64,000 bases of DNA from Eledone cirrhosa (taxonomy: Eukaryota). This document shows, piece by piece, positions 3,403 to 50,964 of the stretch (position 1 is its first letter; the number at the start of each line of letters is the position of its first letter). The notes beneath the pieces are model-generated. The model searched no databases. It saw only the letters and a program-made list of their open reading frames with translations, and had not been told where the DNA came from. A program made the translations under genes and the position numbers. The stretch covers positions 3,286,001 through 3,350,000 of the forward strand of contig OZ024755.1 in NCBI GenBank assembly GCA_964016885.1, written 5' to 3'.

Positions 3403-5059
3403 ATATTTATGTGTTCTGTGGTTTTAATGCTAGAAACTTGTTGAATGCAATGTTACATTTCTTTCTTATCAGGTAACTTTGGTGTAGCATACAAAGCCCA
3501 GTTTACTAAGTGTGACACTGAGCCACCTATGACTGTTGCTGTCAAGTCTTTACAAGGTAAATTAAATCTATAACAACTCTTACACCTGCAATATATATAT
3601 ACAGTTAAATTCCGGTATAACGAAATTCACGGGGTATAAAAAAATATTGTTGTAACGAAGAATTCTTTATAACAATATTGACCGAAAGAAATCGAGTATT
3701 TGTTTGTTATTACTCTGGGGATTGAAAAAACAATTTGTTATACTGAAAAATTTGTTATAATGGTATTCATTATAACGGAATATTACCTGTATCATCATTT
3801 AATTTCTGCTTTCCCTGCTAGCAAGGGTTTGACAGGTGTACATAGACCAAGTCAGTTCTGAAGAGGAGCTACTGATCTCCCAGACAAGTCAGGATATTAT
3901 TCATGTTACGAAGGGCATCCAGCTGTAGAAATCAAGCCAAAATCAGTTCTGTGTGAGCATGACATGGTCACCTGACCAGACATTTCCCACAACAGGACAA
4001 CTTGTTTAATCTATGCTAGTGTGTAAAAATGGACATAAAACGATGATGATGATGAGATATATATATATATATGTGTGTCTATATATGTCTGATCTTTCAG
4101 TCAACTCATCTATAGATCTATGGATCAATTTCTCTTAAATTGGTATCCTCTCCATTTTCATCTTTAAATCAACTCCACTGTGATCCCTGTATCAACTCCA
4201 CTGTGATCCCTGTATCAACTCCACTGTGATCCCTGTATCAACTTATTCTGTCATTTAATTGCTTAAATATATATTATCATCTATCCCTCGCTTTTCTCTA
4301 GCTTTAGATCAATATTCCATATTCTAATGTAATATTGGCTACTTTCTCTGATCCCTTCTCTTTCAGGTTCCAACACTGATCAGAAGGCGCTACAACAGTT
4401 TCTACGGGATTCACTGGTATTTAAGGAACTCCAACATAACAATGTTCTACCAATAATTGGGGTCTGTCTGACCATTAGTGATGACCCTGTAGTTATTGTA
4501 CCATATATGGAAACAATAGACCTTCGCACACACATTAGGGATTCCAGCAAAGTAAGTGACTATATATATATAAGACCCTCTTCCTGCTATTTCAAGTGTT
4601 AAACTAATATATTCCTTCCATATACTGTACCCCGTTTGTGTTATTATTTCTGTTTCCCTTTGACATATATATATATATATATATAAACATTAGGAAATTT
4701 GAAATTTCAAAATTTAGTTGCCCCAATGTAAATAACTATAATAATAGTTGATATATATAAGGGATTTTTTTCAACTATTATTATATTCATCTGCATTGGG
4801 AGAACTATATTTGATAATTGTTTTTATAATTTGATATATATGTTTTTATAATTTTTAAAATTAGTTTTGATGTACACATTTTTCCAACCTTTTATATATA
4901 TATATCTCACTCTGTTCCTCTTTTGCCAGTCGTTGTCAGTATGTACTCTACTGGACTACGGTCTCCAAGTGGCTGAAGGAATGACCTATTTATCTGAACT
5001 GAAGATCATCCACCACAATTTGTCTGCACGAAACTGTTTGTAAGTACAACTTTAAACAC

Positions 5060-5100
<41 letters not shown>

Positions 5101-7258
5101 ATTATGTAATAAACAACATAAGACAATTTTTCCATTTACTAAAGGTAAATGGAATAATTGACAGACGACCTCAACACAGATGTCTGAAATTCCTCATCAG
5201 AATAAAAATTTAACAGACGTAAGATAGTTCTGTAGCACATATAGAGCACTCTCCTTTCCTTTACTCTTCCTATGGAAATACTTCATATATATATAATTAT
5301 ATATATATACAATATTAACAAATGGAAACTATATTTATAAAACCATATTTATTTCATTATACATATTTCAAGGACACCAAGTTAAATTATGGTGTGCTTT
5401 CGTCAGACAAAATATAATATAGATCAGTTTTATAAATAAATATTGACATACCCTTTTCTCTCTTTCTCTCTCTCTCCTTCTTTTTCTTTCTCTGTAACCC
5501 AACGGTTTATTTTAAAAATAAAAATATCCAATACTATTAATAATATAAGTAAACAACTCCACTAACCGGGAGCTTCCAACAGTAATGGTTGCATTTTTTA
5601 AGGGTATGTTAATATTTATTTATAAAACTGATCTATATTATATTTTGTCTGACGAAAGCACACCATAATTTAACTTGGTGTCCTTGAAATATGTATCATG
5701 AAATAAATATGGCTTTATAAATATAGTTTCCATTTGTTAATATCGTATGTTTACTCCAAATACTTGTTGAGTGCTTTATATCAGTTATAAAAATATTTGC
5801 TTGTTGTATCCCAACAATTTAAATAGAACTTATATATATATATAAGAAATTAGTATATTTACCAACATATTTATACAGATGTATATTTACGCTAGTAACT
5901 TTGTGGTTTGATACAGAGAGATGTAGAACAATTATATAAAAGATGTAAAATAAGAAAATTATAGTAATAAAGTCATTTACTTAAATATAGGGAGACACAA
6001 AGCAGGCTTGAAAATTAGGTAGTAACATGTGCTTACGCCGTATTTGACTAAATAGAATTAGTTTGTTAGTTGGGATTTTTAAAAAAAACGTCTGAATGGA
6101 AAAAAGGATGAGTTTTGATGTACATGGGACACGAACCCACATCTTTGGTTTGACCACCAACCTTCCCCCGCCTCCCTCACAAACTCTCTCTAGTATCTGT
6201 CTTTCTGTCCACCAGGTTGTGTGATTATAAAACTGTGAAACTGACCGACATAGGTTTGACCAATGAACTCTTCAGCAAGGACTTCTACTTTACCGAGGAC
6301 CACACTGCTAAGTTACCAGTGAAATGGATGGCTCCAGAGAGTGTTGAACACTTTGTCTTCAGCATCCAAACCGATGTGGTAAGTTCCGTCCTTTACTTTG
6401 TTTTAGGTATCTTGGCCAAGGACAGGCTGGAACACCTTTTTACTTTCTCATTCTTGTTTGATCTCTCTATCTCCTTCTGCAGGGGTGGACAATTGTGAGT
6501 TCAATTCCCACATGTGGAATAAATCATGACATTTCTCAAACATGTAGTTCCAGCAATGTGAATGAAGGAACTTTGACATTGTTGCTGCTTCAACTGCAAT
6601 ACATATATATATAAACACAAACATATATATATGTCATCATCATCATCATCATCATCACCGTTTTACGTCCGTTCTTCCACGCTAGCATGGGTTAGACGAG
6701 TTGTCCTGTTGTGTGCAGCTGACCATGCCTTGCTCATACAGGAACTGATCTGGCTTGATTTCTACAGCTGGATGCCCTTCCTAACACCAACCTCATTTAC
6801 AGTGAGTGCTGGGTGCTTTTTCGTGGCGCCTACACATATGTATATATATATATATATAAACACAAACATATATATATGTATATATATCATCATCATCGTT
6901 TAACGTCCATGTTCCACGCTTGCATGGGTTTGGACCGGAGTTTTCCCACTTGAGGCAAGAGTGGTTGTCATTGCTCGCATAGGACTGTCTGGCGGGTTTT
7001 CTACGGCTGGATGCCCTCCCTAACACCAACCACATTTACAGTGTGGGGCTGGGAGGTTTTTACCGTGTTGCCTACACGGCCACATTACAGCGTGGACTGT
7101 GTGTTTTTTTGTCGTGACACCTACACGATCTCATTTGTTTCGGCCTGGATGTTGTGGCACCAACATAACTTTACATTGAAAGGGGCAGTGTGGATGGGGT
7201 GGGGGTGGTGGGACGGGGATATATATATAAATACAAACATATATATATAAACACAAAC

Positions 7259-7298
<40 letters not shown>

Positions 7299-8762
7299 AC
7301 AAACATATATATATATATGTATATATATATATGTATATATATATAAAAACACAAACATATATATGTATATATAAACACAAACATATATATACATAGAGAG
7401 AGAGAAGAAACCGTTTCGCGCCACAATCAAGATTTTACCTTTCTTTCTTTCTCTGTCTCTCTATAAACACGTGTGCTTCTCTCTACCTGTATGTGCCACT
7501 GTATGTGCCACTGTATGTGCCACTGTATGTGTCTGTATGTGTAGATGTATGTGATTTTATCTACATACTCTTCGTTATTCCAGTGGTCCTATGGAGTGGT
7601 TTTGTGGGAGCTGCTCACCCGTGGTGTGACACCTTATCCAGATGTGGTACCCTGGGATGTGCATAGCTACCTGCAGAGTGGACGACGTATGCAGAAGCCA
7701 AAACATTGCCCAGAATTCATGTAAGTACTAACACTACTACTACTACCACCACCACCACTACTCCACAACAGAGGTGTATATGAAAACATATACAATATGT
7801 CTATGTATAATATACATACCTAATCCCACTGTGAATCTGTTATGCTGTGATCATACAAATGTATTTCAGGATTGTTAATCCATCATTAGTGTTGTTACTT
7901 GGTACTAAGGTATAGAAGCTAATGCTTCATATATATATAGATTTTGCGAATAATGCATTTTTTATGATAGCATATTTGCATATAGTGCAAGCTTGATGAG
8001 ATAGTATTAATTAGTAGTAATATTATATTACACACACACACACACATATATATATATATGTTTACTCTGGGAGAAAACATATTAACTTATCGTACCATTG
8101 AGTGCTTTGTGACTGCCTCAAACAATTCGATTGGTATCTGGTATATTGCAACTACAACTATATATATATACAGAGATTTTGCTCAAGCTCCTTATGTTTA
8201 AGTTACTTGAGGTTGTATATATCCCTAAGGAACAATATTTTATCAACACATTAGTGATATGTATAAGATATTCTCTATATATGTGTGTATATAAGAAAAG
8301 TGTCAGGACTCTACCACCCGGTATCGAGTACTTTGGTGCGTTATGGTCCACCTGGTTACTTACCACCTTCGTTATATATATATGTGGATTAAAATTAAAT
8401 ATATTTTAATCATATTATACCATAAATCAGCCCAAATATGTTTTATACAGGCTAAAATGTGTATTTTGCAGAGCGTTATTTATTCAGTACTATTAAGAAC
8501 ATAGTAAACCAAAAAGTCTATACAATCTTTCTTTTATATTTTATTTTTAACTTATATTTTTGTCTTTCTCTTCTCCAGTTACCAACTGATGTTACGGTGC
8601 TGGCAGGAAGATCCTGATGACCGCCCTGCCTTCTCTGAGGTTTGCACTGCCCTTCGCAGTGTCTCCACCAACGACCCCTCTGTAACGGGGGATGAAGCTC
8701 AGCCCCTGAATGCAACCGTAGAATTTACCGGATCCACGGAATACCTCGAAGTCATCGAATAA
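111..8762 (+). CDS. MET: MET/RON (HGF receptor)-family receptor tyrosine kinase-like gene, 3' part (9 coding exons; 5' end outside window); probable pseudokinase
   Basis: Manually spliced exons 111-266, 1416-1683, 2776-2895, 3473-3556, 4367-4551, 4930-5039, 6216-6378, 7584-7720, 8579-8762. All are GT-AG with consistent phases and form one open frame: IPT-like segment, TM helix, [41 protein letters not shown]. The symbol denotes family, not proven orthology. Confidence 0.9.
325..572. repeat. Intronic minisatellite (aaacactggtatactggtat, ~20 bp unit)
   Basis: Visible tandem iteration. Confidence 0.9.
705..987 (+). mobile_element. 3' end of CR1/L2-like LINE (family also at ~32980-33240 + and ~51050-51105 -)
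   Basis: Encodes the [12 protein letters not shown]...SFK C-terminal motif typical of CR1-group ORF2; copies share the 3' UTR ttgtagtgcacctgagcactgt. Confidence 0.7.
1068..1265. repeat. Minisatellite (ctaactcgacatagtatagt, 20 bp unit)
   Basis: Visible tandem iteration. Confidence 0.9.
1416..1683 (+). CDS. MET-like exon: end of IPT (IGYLSY), transmembrane helix ([28 protein letters not shown]), juxtamembrane
   Basis: ctttcag acceptor; hydrophobic run followed by basic stop-transfer residues; gtaggt donor at 1684 (an alternative phase-1 GT exists at 1672). Confidence 0.85.
1700..2190. repeat. Compound GT-rich minisatellite (gtagatgtctgccatagt + (gt)n)
   Basis: Visible iteration; explains the His/Thr-rich spurious ORFs. 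Confidence 0.9.
2485..2745 (-). mobile_element. SINE family S2 copy (CORE-like domain plus RTE-type tail)
   Basis: Reverse complement of part of the full-length copy at 62858-63301. Confidence 0.75.
2776..2895 (+). CDS. MET-like exon: juxtamembrane to Gly-rich loop (...[10 protein letters not shown])
   Basis: gtcag acceptor, gtaagc donor, phase 1/1. Confidence 0.88.
3213..3356 (-). mobile_element. Palindromic (TA)n-inserted element, family A (half-hammerhead plus GAGTACT tail)
   Basis: ggtaaggaaccaggtggaccataacgcaccaaagtactcaatac followed by a hairpin, flanked by (TA)n; further copies at ~8296-8373, 9980-10170, 12722-12840, 22131-22227, 36977-37181, 57100-57256, 57632-57773. Confidence 0.8.
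3473..3556 (+). CDS. MET-like exon: GNFGVAYKA...VAVKSLQ (subdomains I-II)
   Basis: cttatcag acceptor, gtaaat donor; beta3 Lys retained. Confidence 0.9.
3602..3789. mobile_element. TA-flanked Tc1/pogo(Tigger)-type MITE
   Basis: Imperfect TIRs cagttaaattccggtataacg / cattataacggaatattacctg flanked by TA. Confidence 0.6.
4367..4551 (+). CDS. MET-like exon: alphaC to hinge ([25 protein letters not shown]...[13 protein letters not shown])
   Basis: tttcag acceptor, gtaagt donor. Confidence 0.9.
4930..5039 (+). CDS. MET-like exon: [25 protein letters not shown] (catalytic loop)
   Basis: ttgccag acceptor, gtaagt donor at 5040. Confidence 0.9.
5350..5414 (-). ncRNA. Type I hammerhead ribozyme motif (left arm of palindromic element)
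   Basis: Reverse complement reads tattttgt-CUGACGA-aagcacacca..tggtgtcctt-GAAA-tatgta-UA-atgaaata. Confidence 0.75.
5641..5705 (+). ncRNA. Type I hammerhead ribozyme motif (sense in MET-like intron)
   Basis: Stem I tattttgt/atgaaata (8 bp incl. GU), core CUGACGA 5649-5655, stem II aag-c-acacca/tggtgt-c-ctt, GAAA 5686-5689, minimal stem III, AUC cleavage triplet at 5695-5697. Confidence 0.8.
6216..6378 (+). CDS. MET-like exon: VKLTDIGL...[12 protein letters not shown]...TDV (activation segment)
   Basis: ccaccag acceptor, gtaagt donor; overlaps ORF 6217..6498. Confidence 0.92.
6634..7170 (-). mobile_element. Two S2-type SINE fragments with (CAT)n tails
   Basis: catcatc..gtttaacgtcc..catgggtt..ctggatgcccttcctaacaccaacc; related copies at ~3790-4055, 12435-12670, 14085-14210, 34950-35170, 36710-36940, 53245-53415. 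Confidence 0.75.
7584..7720 (+). CDS. MET-like exon: [21 protein letters not shown]...[13 protein letters not shown]
   Basis: attccag acceptor, gtaagt donor. Confidence 0.92.
8579..8762 (+). CDS. MET-like last coding exon: [20 protein letters not shown]...EYLEVIE*
   Basis: ctccag acceptor, TAA at 8760-8762, AATAAA near 8852. Confidence 0.9.
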
Positions 8763-10192: not shown

Positions 10193-10380
10193 GGCGGTGA
10201 ATTGGCAGTATCGGTAGAGGGTTGGACGCCATGCTTTCTAGCATAGTTATGTCCCTTTACAGTCTGAGTTCAAATCCCGCCGAGGTTAAATTTGCCTTTC
10301 ATCCTTACGGGGTCGATAAAATAAAGTACCAGTAATGCACTGGTTAATTGCTGGCCTTGTGCCTAAAGTAGAAACAATTA
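10193..10380 (+). mobile_element. tRNA-derived SINE family S1 with 15-bp target-site duplication
   Basis: A/B-box-like tggcagtatcggtagag...gagttcaaatccc, central gcctttcatccttacggggtcgataaa, tail ggccttgtgcctaaagtagaaac; TSD tatttaattagaaag at 10178-10192 and 10379-10393. About 20 full or partial copies in the window (e.g. 10817-11000, 25843-26060, 30866-31060, 32268-32595, 41290-41478, 47788-48007, 58943-59130, 61180-61400). Confidence 0.85.
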
Positions 10381-10665
10381 TTTAATTAGAAAGTGAACAG
10401 CACAATATATTACTCCATTACCAAAGGTTTCTGGATCCCAGACAATATTAATACGTCTGGATCGGTCATCAGACAGAGATGCTGTGGATCTATAGCATCT
10501 CTGTCTGACAAACGATCCAGACGTATATTAATGTCGTCTGGGATCCAGAAACCTTTGGTAATGGAGTAATATATTGTGCTGTTCACTTTCTAATTAAATA
10601 GCTCTCTATTATACATAGAGCACTCTTTTTTCCTTTGCTTTTCCTTCGGAATTACCTAACATAGA
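10380..10665 (+). mobile_element. Palindromic hammerhead-bearing element (family B) with AGAGCACT tail
   Basis: ~105-bp inverted arms centred near 10488; homologous copy at 36457-36692. Confidence 0.8.
10413..10478 (-). ncRNA. Type I hammerhead ribozyme motif
   Basis: Reverse complement reads ctctgt-CUGAUGA-ccgatccagac..gtctgggatcca-GAAA-cctttgg-UA-atggag. The mirror copy at 10499-10566 (+) has a CUGACAA core. Confidence 0.75.
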
Positions 10666-36338: not shown

Positions 36339-36456
36339 GGAAGGTATACACCAGTTGGCCATGTATTTTATAGAATATAGTATATTTACCTCTATGATTA
36401 CATATTGAGGGGTCTTCCTTTAGTGATTACAACTACACACTCAATATATATATATA

Positions 36457-36692
36457 ATTAGAAAGTAAACAACATAATATAACTACTCTATTACCAAAAG
36501 TTTCAGGACCCTAGACAATATTAACATGTCTAGTTCGCTCATCAGCTAGACATATGTTAATATTGTCTAGAGTCCTAAAACTTTTGGTAATGGAGTAGTT
36601 TTATATTGTGTTGTTTACTTTCTAATTATATAGCTCTGTATTTTACATAGAGCACTCTTTTTTCCTTTGCTTTTTCTTCGGAAATACTTAAC
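36457..36692 (+). mobile_element. Palindromic hammerhead-bearing element family B, second copy
   Basis: Homologous to 10380-10665; minus-strand CUGAUGA (36539-36545)...GAAA-cttttgg-UA. Confidence 0.75.
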
Positions 36693-42054: not shown

Positions 42055-42245
42055 GGTTGACGGCTGAGAGAAAACAGTACTCAATACCGAAGTAGAGTTT
42101 AAATATTCATTTTATTAAGGCTAAATAGTGAGTCTTGTTACTTTGGAATTTGCCTGTTTATCACAGGGTCATAATTTGTCTGATGACCCTGGATTAACAG
42201 AAGAAACTCCAGAGTAACAAGACTCACTATTTAGCCTTAATAAAA

Positions 42246-42252
<7 letters not shown>
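42055..42252 (-). mobile_element. Palindromic (TA)n-inserted element family D with hammerhead
   Basis: cagtactcaatac tail (antisense), ~70-bp inverted arms, (TA)n on both sides. Confidence 0.78.
42175..42221 (+). ncRNA. Type I hammerhead ribozyme motif
   Basis: tttgt-CUGAUGA-ccctg..cagaa-GAAA-ctccagag-UA-acaag. Confidence 0.7.
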
Positions 42253-42320
<68 letters not shown>

Positions 42321-50599: not shown

Positions 50600-50634
50600 T
50601 CTTAATGTTTCGGACACTAGTCATTCATCAGAAA
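50600..50634 (-). ncRNA. Minimal Penelope-type hammerhead-like motif (degenerate)
   Basis: Reverse complement reads ttt-CUGAUGA-atgactagtgtcc-GAAA-cattaag, next to (TA)n. Confidence 0.45.
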
Positions 50635-50689: not shown

Positions 50690-50964
50690 AAGCTCAGTCT
50701 GTTACAAGAGAGCTTATTTAGTATATTTAAAATTTCATATACTTAACATGTATGTGCAAGCTTAGGTTTCAGGAACCAGTTATGGGCCCCCACTCTATAG
50801 TGGAGGTGTCATTTCAAAACTGGCCCCTCATCGGGCACCAGGATGTAATATAGTCCAGGAACCAGGTGAGAGGCCAGTTTTGAAACAGCTCCTCCACTAT
50901 AGAGTGGGGGCCATAACTGGACTCTGAAACCTAAGCTTGCACATAAATGTTAAGTATATGAAAT
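50690..50964 (-). mobile_element. Palindromic element family E with long-stem-II hammerhead-like fold
   Basis: ~105-bp inverted arms (50732-50838 vs ~50860-50963); reverse complement reads gtgc-CCGAUGA-ggggccagtt...aactggttcct-GAAA-cctaagc-UU-gcac. Confidence 0.6.

Follow-up and report, generated by a model that had tools for sequence, protein, structure and literature searches.

A Probable Penelope-Like Element Insertion as the Origin of Paired Hammerhead Motifs in a Kinase-Gene Intron of Eledone cirrhosa

The Host Gene and Its Intron

The window considered here, the whole stretch of 64,000 nucleotides that was analysed (Eledone cirrhosa, contig OZ024755.1, positions 3,286,001 to 3,350,000 of the forward strand), carries a kinase domain on its plus strand at 3535-8750. 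Its exons are open and spliced, and its translation keeps VAVK, with HHN standing in place of HRD and DIG in place of DFG. Set against HRD and DFG, the standard kinase motifs, the gene presumably resembles a MET-related receptor pseudokinase. MET-family chains predominate among the PDB matches of the kinase exons. No close paralogue of the host kinase was found, the best other match being 45% identical.

Two exons of the tyrosine-kinase domain bound the intron of interest: 4930-5039 (+), whose translation contains the catalytic loop HHNLSARN, and 6216-6378 (+), with DIG replacing DFG (PF07714, E = 2.1e-11). Both are found in a 4793-nt contig of run X4, which joins exons 4365-4551, 4930-5039 and 6216-6378 at GT..AG with 0 differing letters; exons outside 4360-6400 were inferred from a motif scan. 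Four runs, all in the form of contigs and from one study, were consulted, and X4 is treated as RNA because it contains this spliced contig. Since the exons are joined there, the kinase gene is evidently transcribed and spliced in E. cirrhosa, on the evidence of one contig from an animal that may or may not carry the insertion described below. The host intron occupies 5040-6215 (GT..AG) between the HHN and DIG exons, and the original prediction that a plus-strand hammerhead lies within the pre-mRNA between these exons is borne out by the spliced contig.

Older repeat material is also present nearby. The previous intron holds a repeat fragment at 4571-4631 (+); other copies of it, seen as loose ends, have a hammerhead-like core just upstream, which the fragment in this intron lacks. 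Adjoining the insertion on its left, 5110-5285 (-) is an older repeat remnant that resembles the element at 10.4 kb and retains CTGATGAG and helix II, with no GAAA box.

Anatomy of the Palindrome

The inverted-repeat arms originally reported at 5310-5455 and 5600-5748 are real: 5307-5455 and 5600-5748 align over 149 nt and are 97.3% complementary, with four mismatches (5610/5445, 5697/5358, 5713/5342 and 5744/5311). The RNA of 5300-5755 has a folding energy of -225.5 kcal/mol, whereas its shuffles average -64.9 (z = -36.8; 0 of 100 shuffles as stable). Read from the left, the sequence opens with a (TA)n tract at 5285-5309, the left flank of the insertion target; most family copies both start and end in (TA)n. 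An inverted, 5'-truncated pLTR copy without a tail follows at 5310-5455 (-), matching 5600-5748 and sharing its outer end with other inverted arms. Within it, antisense to the host pre-mRNA, is a type I hammerhead at 5350-5414 (-) with the family-type triplet AUA (A17 at 5358). A short T run marks the junction (5455/5456) between the inverted arm and the forward copy, 5456-5831 (+), a 5'-truncated copy of the 3' end of the element that comprises a CT-rich stretch, the pLTR and the tail and that matches copies L007, L012, L024 and L025. The forward copy contains a second type I hammerhead at 5641-5705 (+), sense to the pre-mRNA, with a predicted cut at 5697/5698, and the 83-nt "tail" of a Penelope-like element (PLE) at 5749-5831 (+), which is present on this arm only, measures about 88 nt in the family, and in long copies stands about 50 nt before the ORF start. 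A further (TA)n tract at 5832-5844 forms the right flank of the target.

The earlier delineation of the unit was sound as to the palindrome and fell short in ending it at 5748, as the element runs on to 5831. Similarly, the 144-nt "spacer" between the arms is not host DNA: according to longer copies, both this "loop" and the 83-nt tail beyond 5748 are element sequence. In one sample, three DNA-like runs have loose contig ends at 5748 and 5844 that lead into (TA)n. Both flanks of the insertion are (TA)n, and a target-site duplication would be inseparable from the tract. No empty-allele joint was present among the 15 of 47 joints listed for the four contig runs, and the summed contig depth over the element, a figure that is not a copy number, is about 10,000-fold or more above that of the exons. 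An ORF-bearing copy, L061, has a 5' pLTR that matches the window copy at 97.3% over 297 nt, which indicates a young insertion.

PLE-type palindromes recur elsewhere in the window and in the sampled dynein genes discussed below. Short palindromes of other repeat families lie at 10379-10600, 36451-36632 and 42100-42255. In each of them one hammerhead-like core is intact and its mirror copy is damaged or truncated; all three are likely PLE stubs. The palindrome at 50732-50964 (85% identity) has no intact core; a separate minus-strand hammerhead-like motif adjoins it at 50631.

The Hammerhead Motifs

The plus hammerhead is made up of stem I (5641-5648/5698-5705), CUGACGA (5649-5655), stem II (5656-5685), GAAA (5686-5689) and C17 at 5697, and the minus hammerhead (5414-5350) is identical to it except for the triplet; as first noted, this is AUA on the minus copy and AUC on the plus copy. 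In each, CUGACGA and GAAA are accompanied by a helix I of 8 bp, a helix II of 10 positions with a single C-C mismatch and a helix III of 2 bp, and the type I core (CUGANGA, GAAA, NUH) is present in both arms. NUC is a favourable cleavage triplet. Here AUC (C17) is private to the plus copy of the window, A occupying the position in 29 of 29 other top copies, a point that speaks against an inert motif. At the gathering threshold, Rfam returned 0 matches in the window and is therefore no test of these hammerhead variants.

Across all fetched loci the motif occurs in 59 distinct variants, which are related to one another and so represent few independent events. Helix II shows compensation at pair 6 (46 with C-G, 12 with U-A), pair 2 varies three ways (A-U in 50, G-U in 5, G-C in 4), and the helix I pairs are retained in 54-58 of the 59. 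Because changes in helices I and II keep pairing across the variants, the motif appears to have been maintained in the element lineage. The C-C mismatch in helix II is near-fixed (54/59), pair 10.1-11.1 is A-U in 57/59, and the helix III loop is fully palindromic in 5 variants.

Both hammerheads had been described as complete, which holds for their sequence and not for their fold, helix III being only 2 bp and unstable. In the monomer it is computed to form with P = 0.0007-0.0009 at a cost of 3.3 kcal/mol; the AUAUGUAU helix III is self-complementary, and its pairing with a second copy is computed at -2.2 kcal/mol. A stable monomer helix III with a G10.1-C11.1 pair is thus not what these motifs have (P < 0.001; A-U). 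Such instability lowers the prospects of an active monomer, not those of a PLE-type dimer hammerhead. In the window, the host pre-mRNA has a single sense hammerhead at the insertion. Among minimal hammerheads of metazoan PLEs, the only one to have been tested in isolation gave no detectable cleavage, and dimers gave low cleavage (PMC4209133). The Anolis PAc hammerhead is reported to cleave only with the element protein, and no RNA-seq reads were found to end at its site (PMC11167929). Judging from the computed folds and from these relatives, a lone sense hammerhead is likely to be near-inactive.

Copy Number and Antisense-First Geometry

One hammerhead 35-mer has 3560 exact matches in the genome (1821 forward, 1739 reverse), the reversed control having 0. 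Geometry was assessed in the first 100 of the 3560 matches, on contig C1, which correspond to 78 insertions, all of them fetched. Among these 100 matches, 22 neighbouring pairs lie within 5 kb, 18 being minus-then-plus, 1 plus-then-minus and 3 same-strand; close pairs on opposite strands are antisense-first in 18/19. An abutting inverted arm was found in at least 47 of the 78 insertions and a full antisense hammerhead in at least 33, both lower bounds for the sample because the arm finder missed some distant or very short arms. An alignment-free count places an antisense core upstream in 36/78, 29 of these within 1 kb. The requirement for an exact 35-mer favours double copies, and a hand correction from 15/33 gives about 35% genome-wide.

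With full antisense arms in 33/78 insertions and 18/19 opposite-strand pairs antisense-first, this geometry is the default of the family. The order of the arms, to which the original prediction had attached meaning, is uninformative, because a head-to-head palindrome reads antisense-first on either strand; the order is automatic for any such palindrome, which is here the normal insertion product. The arrangement is also already in print. Dual hammerheads on opposite strands, 100-700 bp apart, have been reported (PMC4209133), and three papers describe PLE insertions in which a 5'-truncated copy lies inverted and one end bears a tail (PMC8557442; PMC3846280; PMC8969392).

A Probable Hydra-Type Penelope-Like Element

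A search with one arm returned 1574 candidates, and the 40 that were scored are all 97-100% identical along the full arm. Nearly all of 30 loci from this search share a 3' end near the equivalent of window 5832-5844, running into (TA)n; their 5' ends are variable, and an inverted copy starting at (TA)n, at the equivalent of 5748, is often present. In three long copies, a common stretch of about 3 kb lies upstream and includes an ORF. Among twelve of the 150 listed ORF matches, chosen mainly for long open frames, three (L052, L053 and L054) have an ORF of 742-745 aa open from its ATG. These open frames lie at L052:2384-4609, at L054:2375-4600 and on the minus strand of L053, two of them between direct pLTRs. 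Direct copies of the pLTR flank the ORF in L052, L053 and L061, as expected of pLTRs derived from partial tandems, and the long copies are laid out as an inverted pLTR, a pLTR with hammerhead and tail, about 50 nt, the ATG, the ORF, about 1.7 kb of non-coding sequence and a pLTR. A (TA)n insertion preference and a canonical hammerhead core are likewise found in copies of the family.

The element ORF contains RWR (RSR in L053), DKT, YRDD, FLDVTL, CxCx5C, CxxC and CxH. By eye, its Hydra-type residues are RWR, DKT, CNCRNKSNC, CDLC and CRH, no CCHH being seen by the same means; a YVG...R..NH motif was also recognised by eye, with no direct Pfam match to GIY-YIG. Pfam, NCBIfam and PDB sequence searches with the ORF gave nothing significant. 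The Atlas clusters closest to it, with scores of 0.96-0.98, are annotated with HTH_animal, GIY-YIG or RVT_1, with RVT_1 in two of the listed rows and GIY-YIG in 31-50% of the members of several clusters. A PLE-type reverse transcriptase ORF (YRDD, DKT, FLDVTL) is thus present in the linked copies and absent from the truncated window copy. The motifs given for the Hydra clade are DKT, RW[RK], CxCx5C, CxxC and CxH, with which the element ORF agrees (PMC8557442), and motifs compared by eye together with the Atlas neighbours match an assignment to this clade. The cephalopod families in the supplement of PMC8557442 do not include this one. Its open ORFs suggest that it is young and possibly still active.

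We therefore read the palindrome, with a probability of about 90%, as one 5'-truncated insertion of a high-copy Hydra-type PLE in intronic (TA)n, its hammerheads being likely inert passengers of the pLTR and not a selected switch. Long, near-perfect inverted arms in AT-rich DNA would also be the look of a palindromic, non-autonomous DNA element of MITE-like kind, or of a local fold-back duplication unrelated to retrotransposition. The arms are unequal, however, their inner ends vary between copies while the outer ends are fixed at two sites, and in long copies the same sequence continues upstream into the reverse transcriptase ORF, which leaves such an origin hardly credible.

The One-Tail Rule and a Possible Mechanism of Insertion

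The state of the tail could be classified for 42 of the 47 arms, the five with unclear outer ends being omitted. It is present on the forward arm only in 18, on the inverted arm only in 22, on neither in 2 and on both in 0, such that exactly one arm bears a tail in 40/42 palindromes (p = 2e-10 against one half; 39/41 without the apparently duplicated locus L160/L161). This one-tail pattern has already been described qualitatively, and no earlier count of this kind was found in the cited portions of the literature. In the 34 palindromes with two full motifs, the arms share 14 non-majority letters, compared with a mean of 1.5 and a maximum of 5 in 2000 reshuffled pairings. At core position 7, both arms in the window have a C, which recurs in just two other fetched loci. 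Most junctions overlap by 0-6 nt.

Fold-back self-priming has been proposed for inverted PLE copies (PMC3846280). A simple fold-back of one cDNA is disfavoured here, as it would give two equal ends and 40/42 palindromes have unequal ones. Two priming events on one donor, at the two start sites demonstrated in vitro for PAc, fit better, because the tail is confined to one arm and the arms share rare variants. Specifically, we consider it possible, at slightly less than even odds, that a PLE protein acting as a dimer makes two copies of one donor RNA, starting at two fixed sites and primed in each case by one strand of the cut (TA)n, and that the cDNAs are joined head to head. On our preferred reading of the window copy, the element endonuclease would have cut both strands of the (TA)n target, and each DNA end would have primed reverse transcription, which would have begun at the tail end (~5836) in one case and at 5748 in the other; the two cDNAs would have stopped early and been joined head to head. 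Alternatively, the palindromes may arise when an endonuclease resolves an intermediate at staggered sites, a suggestion made in PMC8557442, and gene conversion may have acted on the arms afterwards.

The modest value of this analysis lies in the mechanism by which PLEs form head-to-head inverted copies, since counts of tails and of shared variants separate the proposed models. This active-looking family, which has intact ORFs and a tail of 83-88 nt, would allow the idea of two priming events to be tested directly in vitro. As a separate observation, the inner (5') ends of many short copies (L093-L170) cluster at the equivalents of 5559-5567, which suggests a transcription start or a reverse-transcriptase stop site.

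Predicted Masking and Possible Editing in the Host Transcript

The original prediction held that the antisense arm, being transcribed first, should sequester the ribozyme, and that palindromic copies may be tolerated in introns for this reason. As computed physics, sequestration stands: within 5310-5748, core base 5649 pairs with 5406 at P = 0.99997, stem II has a probability of about 1e-22, and a duplex of -76.6 kcal/mol is available once the transcript reaches 5640, ahead of the ribozyme core. As an explanation of tolerance it does not, because antisense-first palindromes are the normal products of PLE insertion. Masking likely buries something near-inactive as well, given that helix III has P < 0.001 in the monomer. 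In the tandem RNA of the element itself, the hammerhead would cut as a dimer via the AUAUGUAU helix III, perhaps with the element protein. In the host pre-mRNA, the one sense hammerhead would be near-inactive alone and also buried in the 149-bp duplex, which would be an ordinary intronic ADAR substrate, lost with the intron.

It is a known rule that double-stranded RNA formed by intronic repeats is a target of ADAR. That the long intronic duplex is such a substrate is plausible, and PLE palindromes probably give rise to double-stranded RNA within introns. Heavy editing is reported for palindromic repeats and for Penelope copies in a lizard, and hyper-editing is strong in octopus (PMC5625713); since such repeats are edited, editing at the window palindrome would be ordinary. 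The four contig runs list 0 A>G differences at the locus, though contigs drop rare variants and mix thousands of copies, and the count has no bearing on editing.

One might nevertheless envisage a regulatory switch, in which ADAR editing or a helicase opens the duplex and the sense hammerhead cuts the pre-mRNA, thereby tuning expression of the kinase gene. The sense copy does have an intact core and a private AUC, its cleavage base falls at one of only four mismatches in the duplex, and the strong hyper-editing in octopus would supply the trigger (PMC5625713). Against this, the insertion is young (97% identical to an ORF-bearing copy), the arms differ at two places in 5641-5739, just the average for the sample (69 in 34), and helix III is computed to be unstable even when freed. 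Editing would likely strike the core adenosines too, and no earlier report of an antisense-sequestered Penelope hammerhead was found among titles and abstract openings. On this balance, we consider such a switch very improbable. We know of no editing-gated intronic ribozyme, and gating, if true, would make this the first one known in an intron. Under the preferred reading as a PLE insertion, the regulatory significance of the palindrome is small, its structure being the usual look of such insertions.

Selection Within Genes

Masking could also matter in a weaker sense: the palindrome may be neutral in origin and selectively retained, sense intronic hammerheads being mildly harmful and antisense-masked copies surviving somewhat more often. 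The masking is thermodynamically complete by computation. Tandem hammerhead repeats are reported to be depleted from Xenopus introns, from which it follows that genic hammerheads can be selected against (bioRxiv 10.64898/2026.07.22.740005; the words antisense and orientation are absent from its text). Furthermore, a fast intronic ribozyme aborts splicing, but slower hammerhead cleavage left splicing intact (Fong 2009 and Dye 2006, Fong 2009, respectively, as cited in PMC2995048).

Dynein heavy-chain gene spans, defined without annotation by PF08393 and PF18199 matches on one strand, were used to examine whether sense hammerheads inside genes are biased toward having an antisense arm. The sample comprises parts of six of about 20 such spans, amounting to 798,000 bases in equal halves from the two strands. 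With a strict descriptor, 20 motifs were found, against 0 in the reversed sequence. Each of the 20 has homologues in further stretches that were fetched, and the unpaired ones numbered 5 sense and 5 antisense. A relaxed scan retained 29/117 core matches by homology to seeds. Here the unpaired motifs were 8 sense and 4 antisense at an arm cover below 0.3 (p = 0.39; sense share 0.35-0.90, 95%), and 10 sense and 5 antisense at an arm cover below 0.6. Paired sense motifs make up 7-9/17, near the family baseline of 33-36/78.

The predicted arm bias was accordingly not seen (5 vs 5 strict; 8 vs 4 relaxed) in what is a small test of 12-15 unpaired motifs from mixed PLE families and one gene family, with 4/8 unpaired sense motifs in one gene. 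Since unpaired sense copies are found and are undepleted, a sense hammerhead can persist in a gene span without an antisense arm, and within this small gene-span test the idea that the palindrome is tolerated thanks to its antisense arm gains no support. Moderate selection against unpaired sense hammerheads may exist; with unpaired sense motifs undepleted and the paired share at the family baseline, selective retention of the window palindrome is nevertheless improbable. The same dynein spans (L178-L257) contain at least 5 related hammerhead types with a common helix I and AUAUGUAU-like helix III and differing helix II, at a density of about 1 motif per 28 kb.

Comparison With Known Systems

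The motif recalls the intronic HDV-like ribozyme of CPEB3 in that a ribozyme motif lies on the sense strand of an intron. The CPEB3 ribozyme is single-copy, conserved and active as a monomer, whereas the window motif belongs to a young insertion, one of thousands of copies, and by prediction would have no activity by itself. A non-LTR retrozyme was also considered and rejected, as it needs head-to-tail hammerhead units; the window motifs are head to head, with no second sense copy.

There is a close likeness to Hydra-1_Obim and the Hydra clade (Craig et al. 2021, PMC8557442), with a single ORF containing reverse transcriptase and C-terminal endonuclease motifs, a hammerhead near the 3' end, (TA)n targets and inverted 5'-truncated copies. 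The window family differs in its length from ORF start to 3' end (about 4 kb vs "generally <3 kb"), in its clear pLTRs, unlike the clade as described, and in its tail (83-88 nt vs 30-40). Two 7-residue motifs of its ORF occur 0 times in the supplement of that paper, and its hammerhead is unlike the one listed there (PMC8557442). By sequence comparison, the window element is likely a different family from the published ones of the Hydra clade.

The hammerheads themselves resemble the minimal and short-helix-III type I PLE hammerheads of Cervera and de la Pena 2014 (PMC4209133) in their location in pLTRs, their long helix II, their short near-palindromic helix III and their occurrence in mostly truncated copies. 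They depart from these in an 8-bp helix I, a near-fixed C-C mismatch in helix II, and an A-U pair at 10.1-11.1, where G-C is described as "highly conserved" (PMC4209133).

With regard to insertion, a close counterpart is the Poseidon PAc element of Anolis (Frangieh et al. 2024, PMC11167929), in which two fixed 3' ends likewise bound a tail and the targets are AT-rich. PAc cuts and extends both strands of its target (PMC11167929). Its two start sites lie at least 111 nt inside the ORF, whereas both ends in the window family are upstream of the ATG and close with AT-like letters leading on into the (TA)n target.
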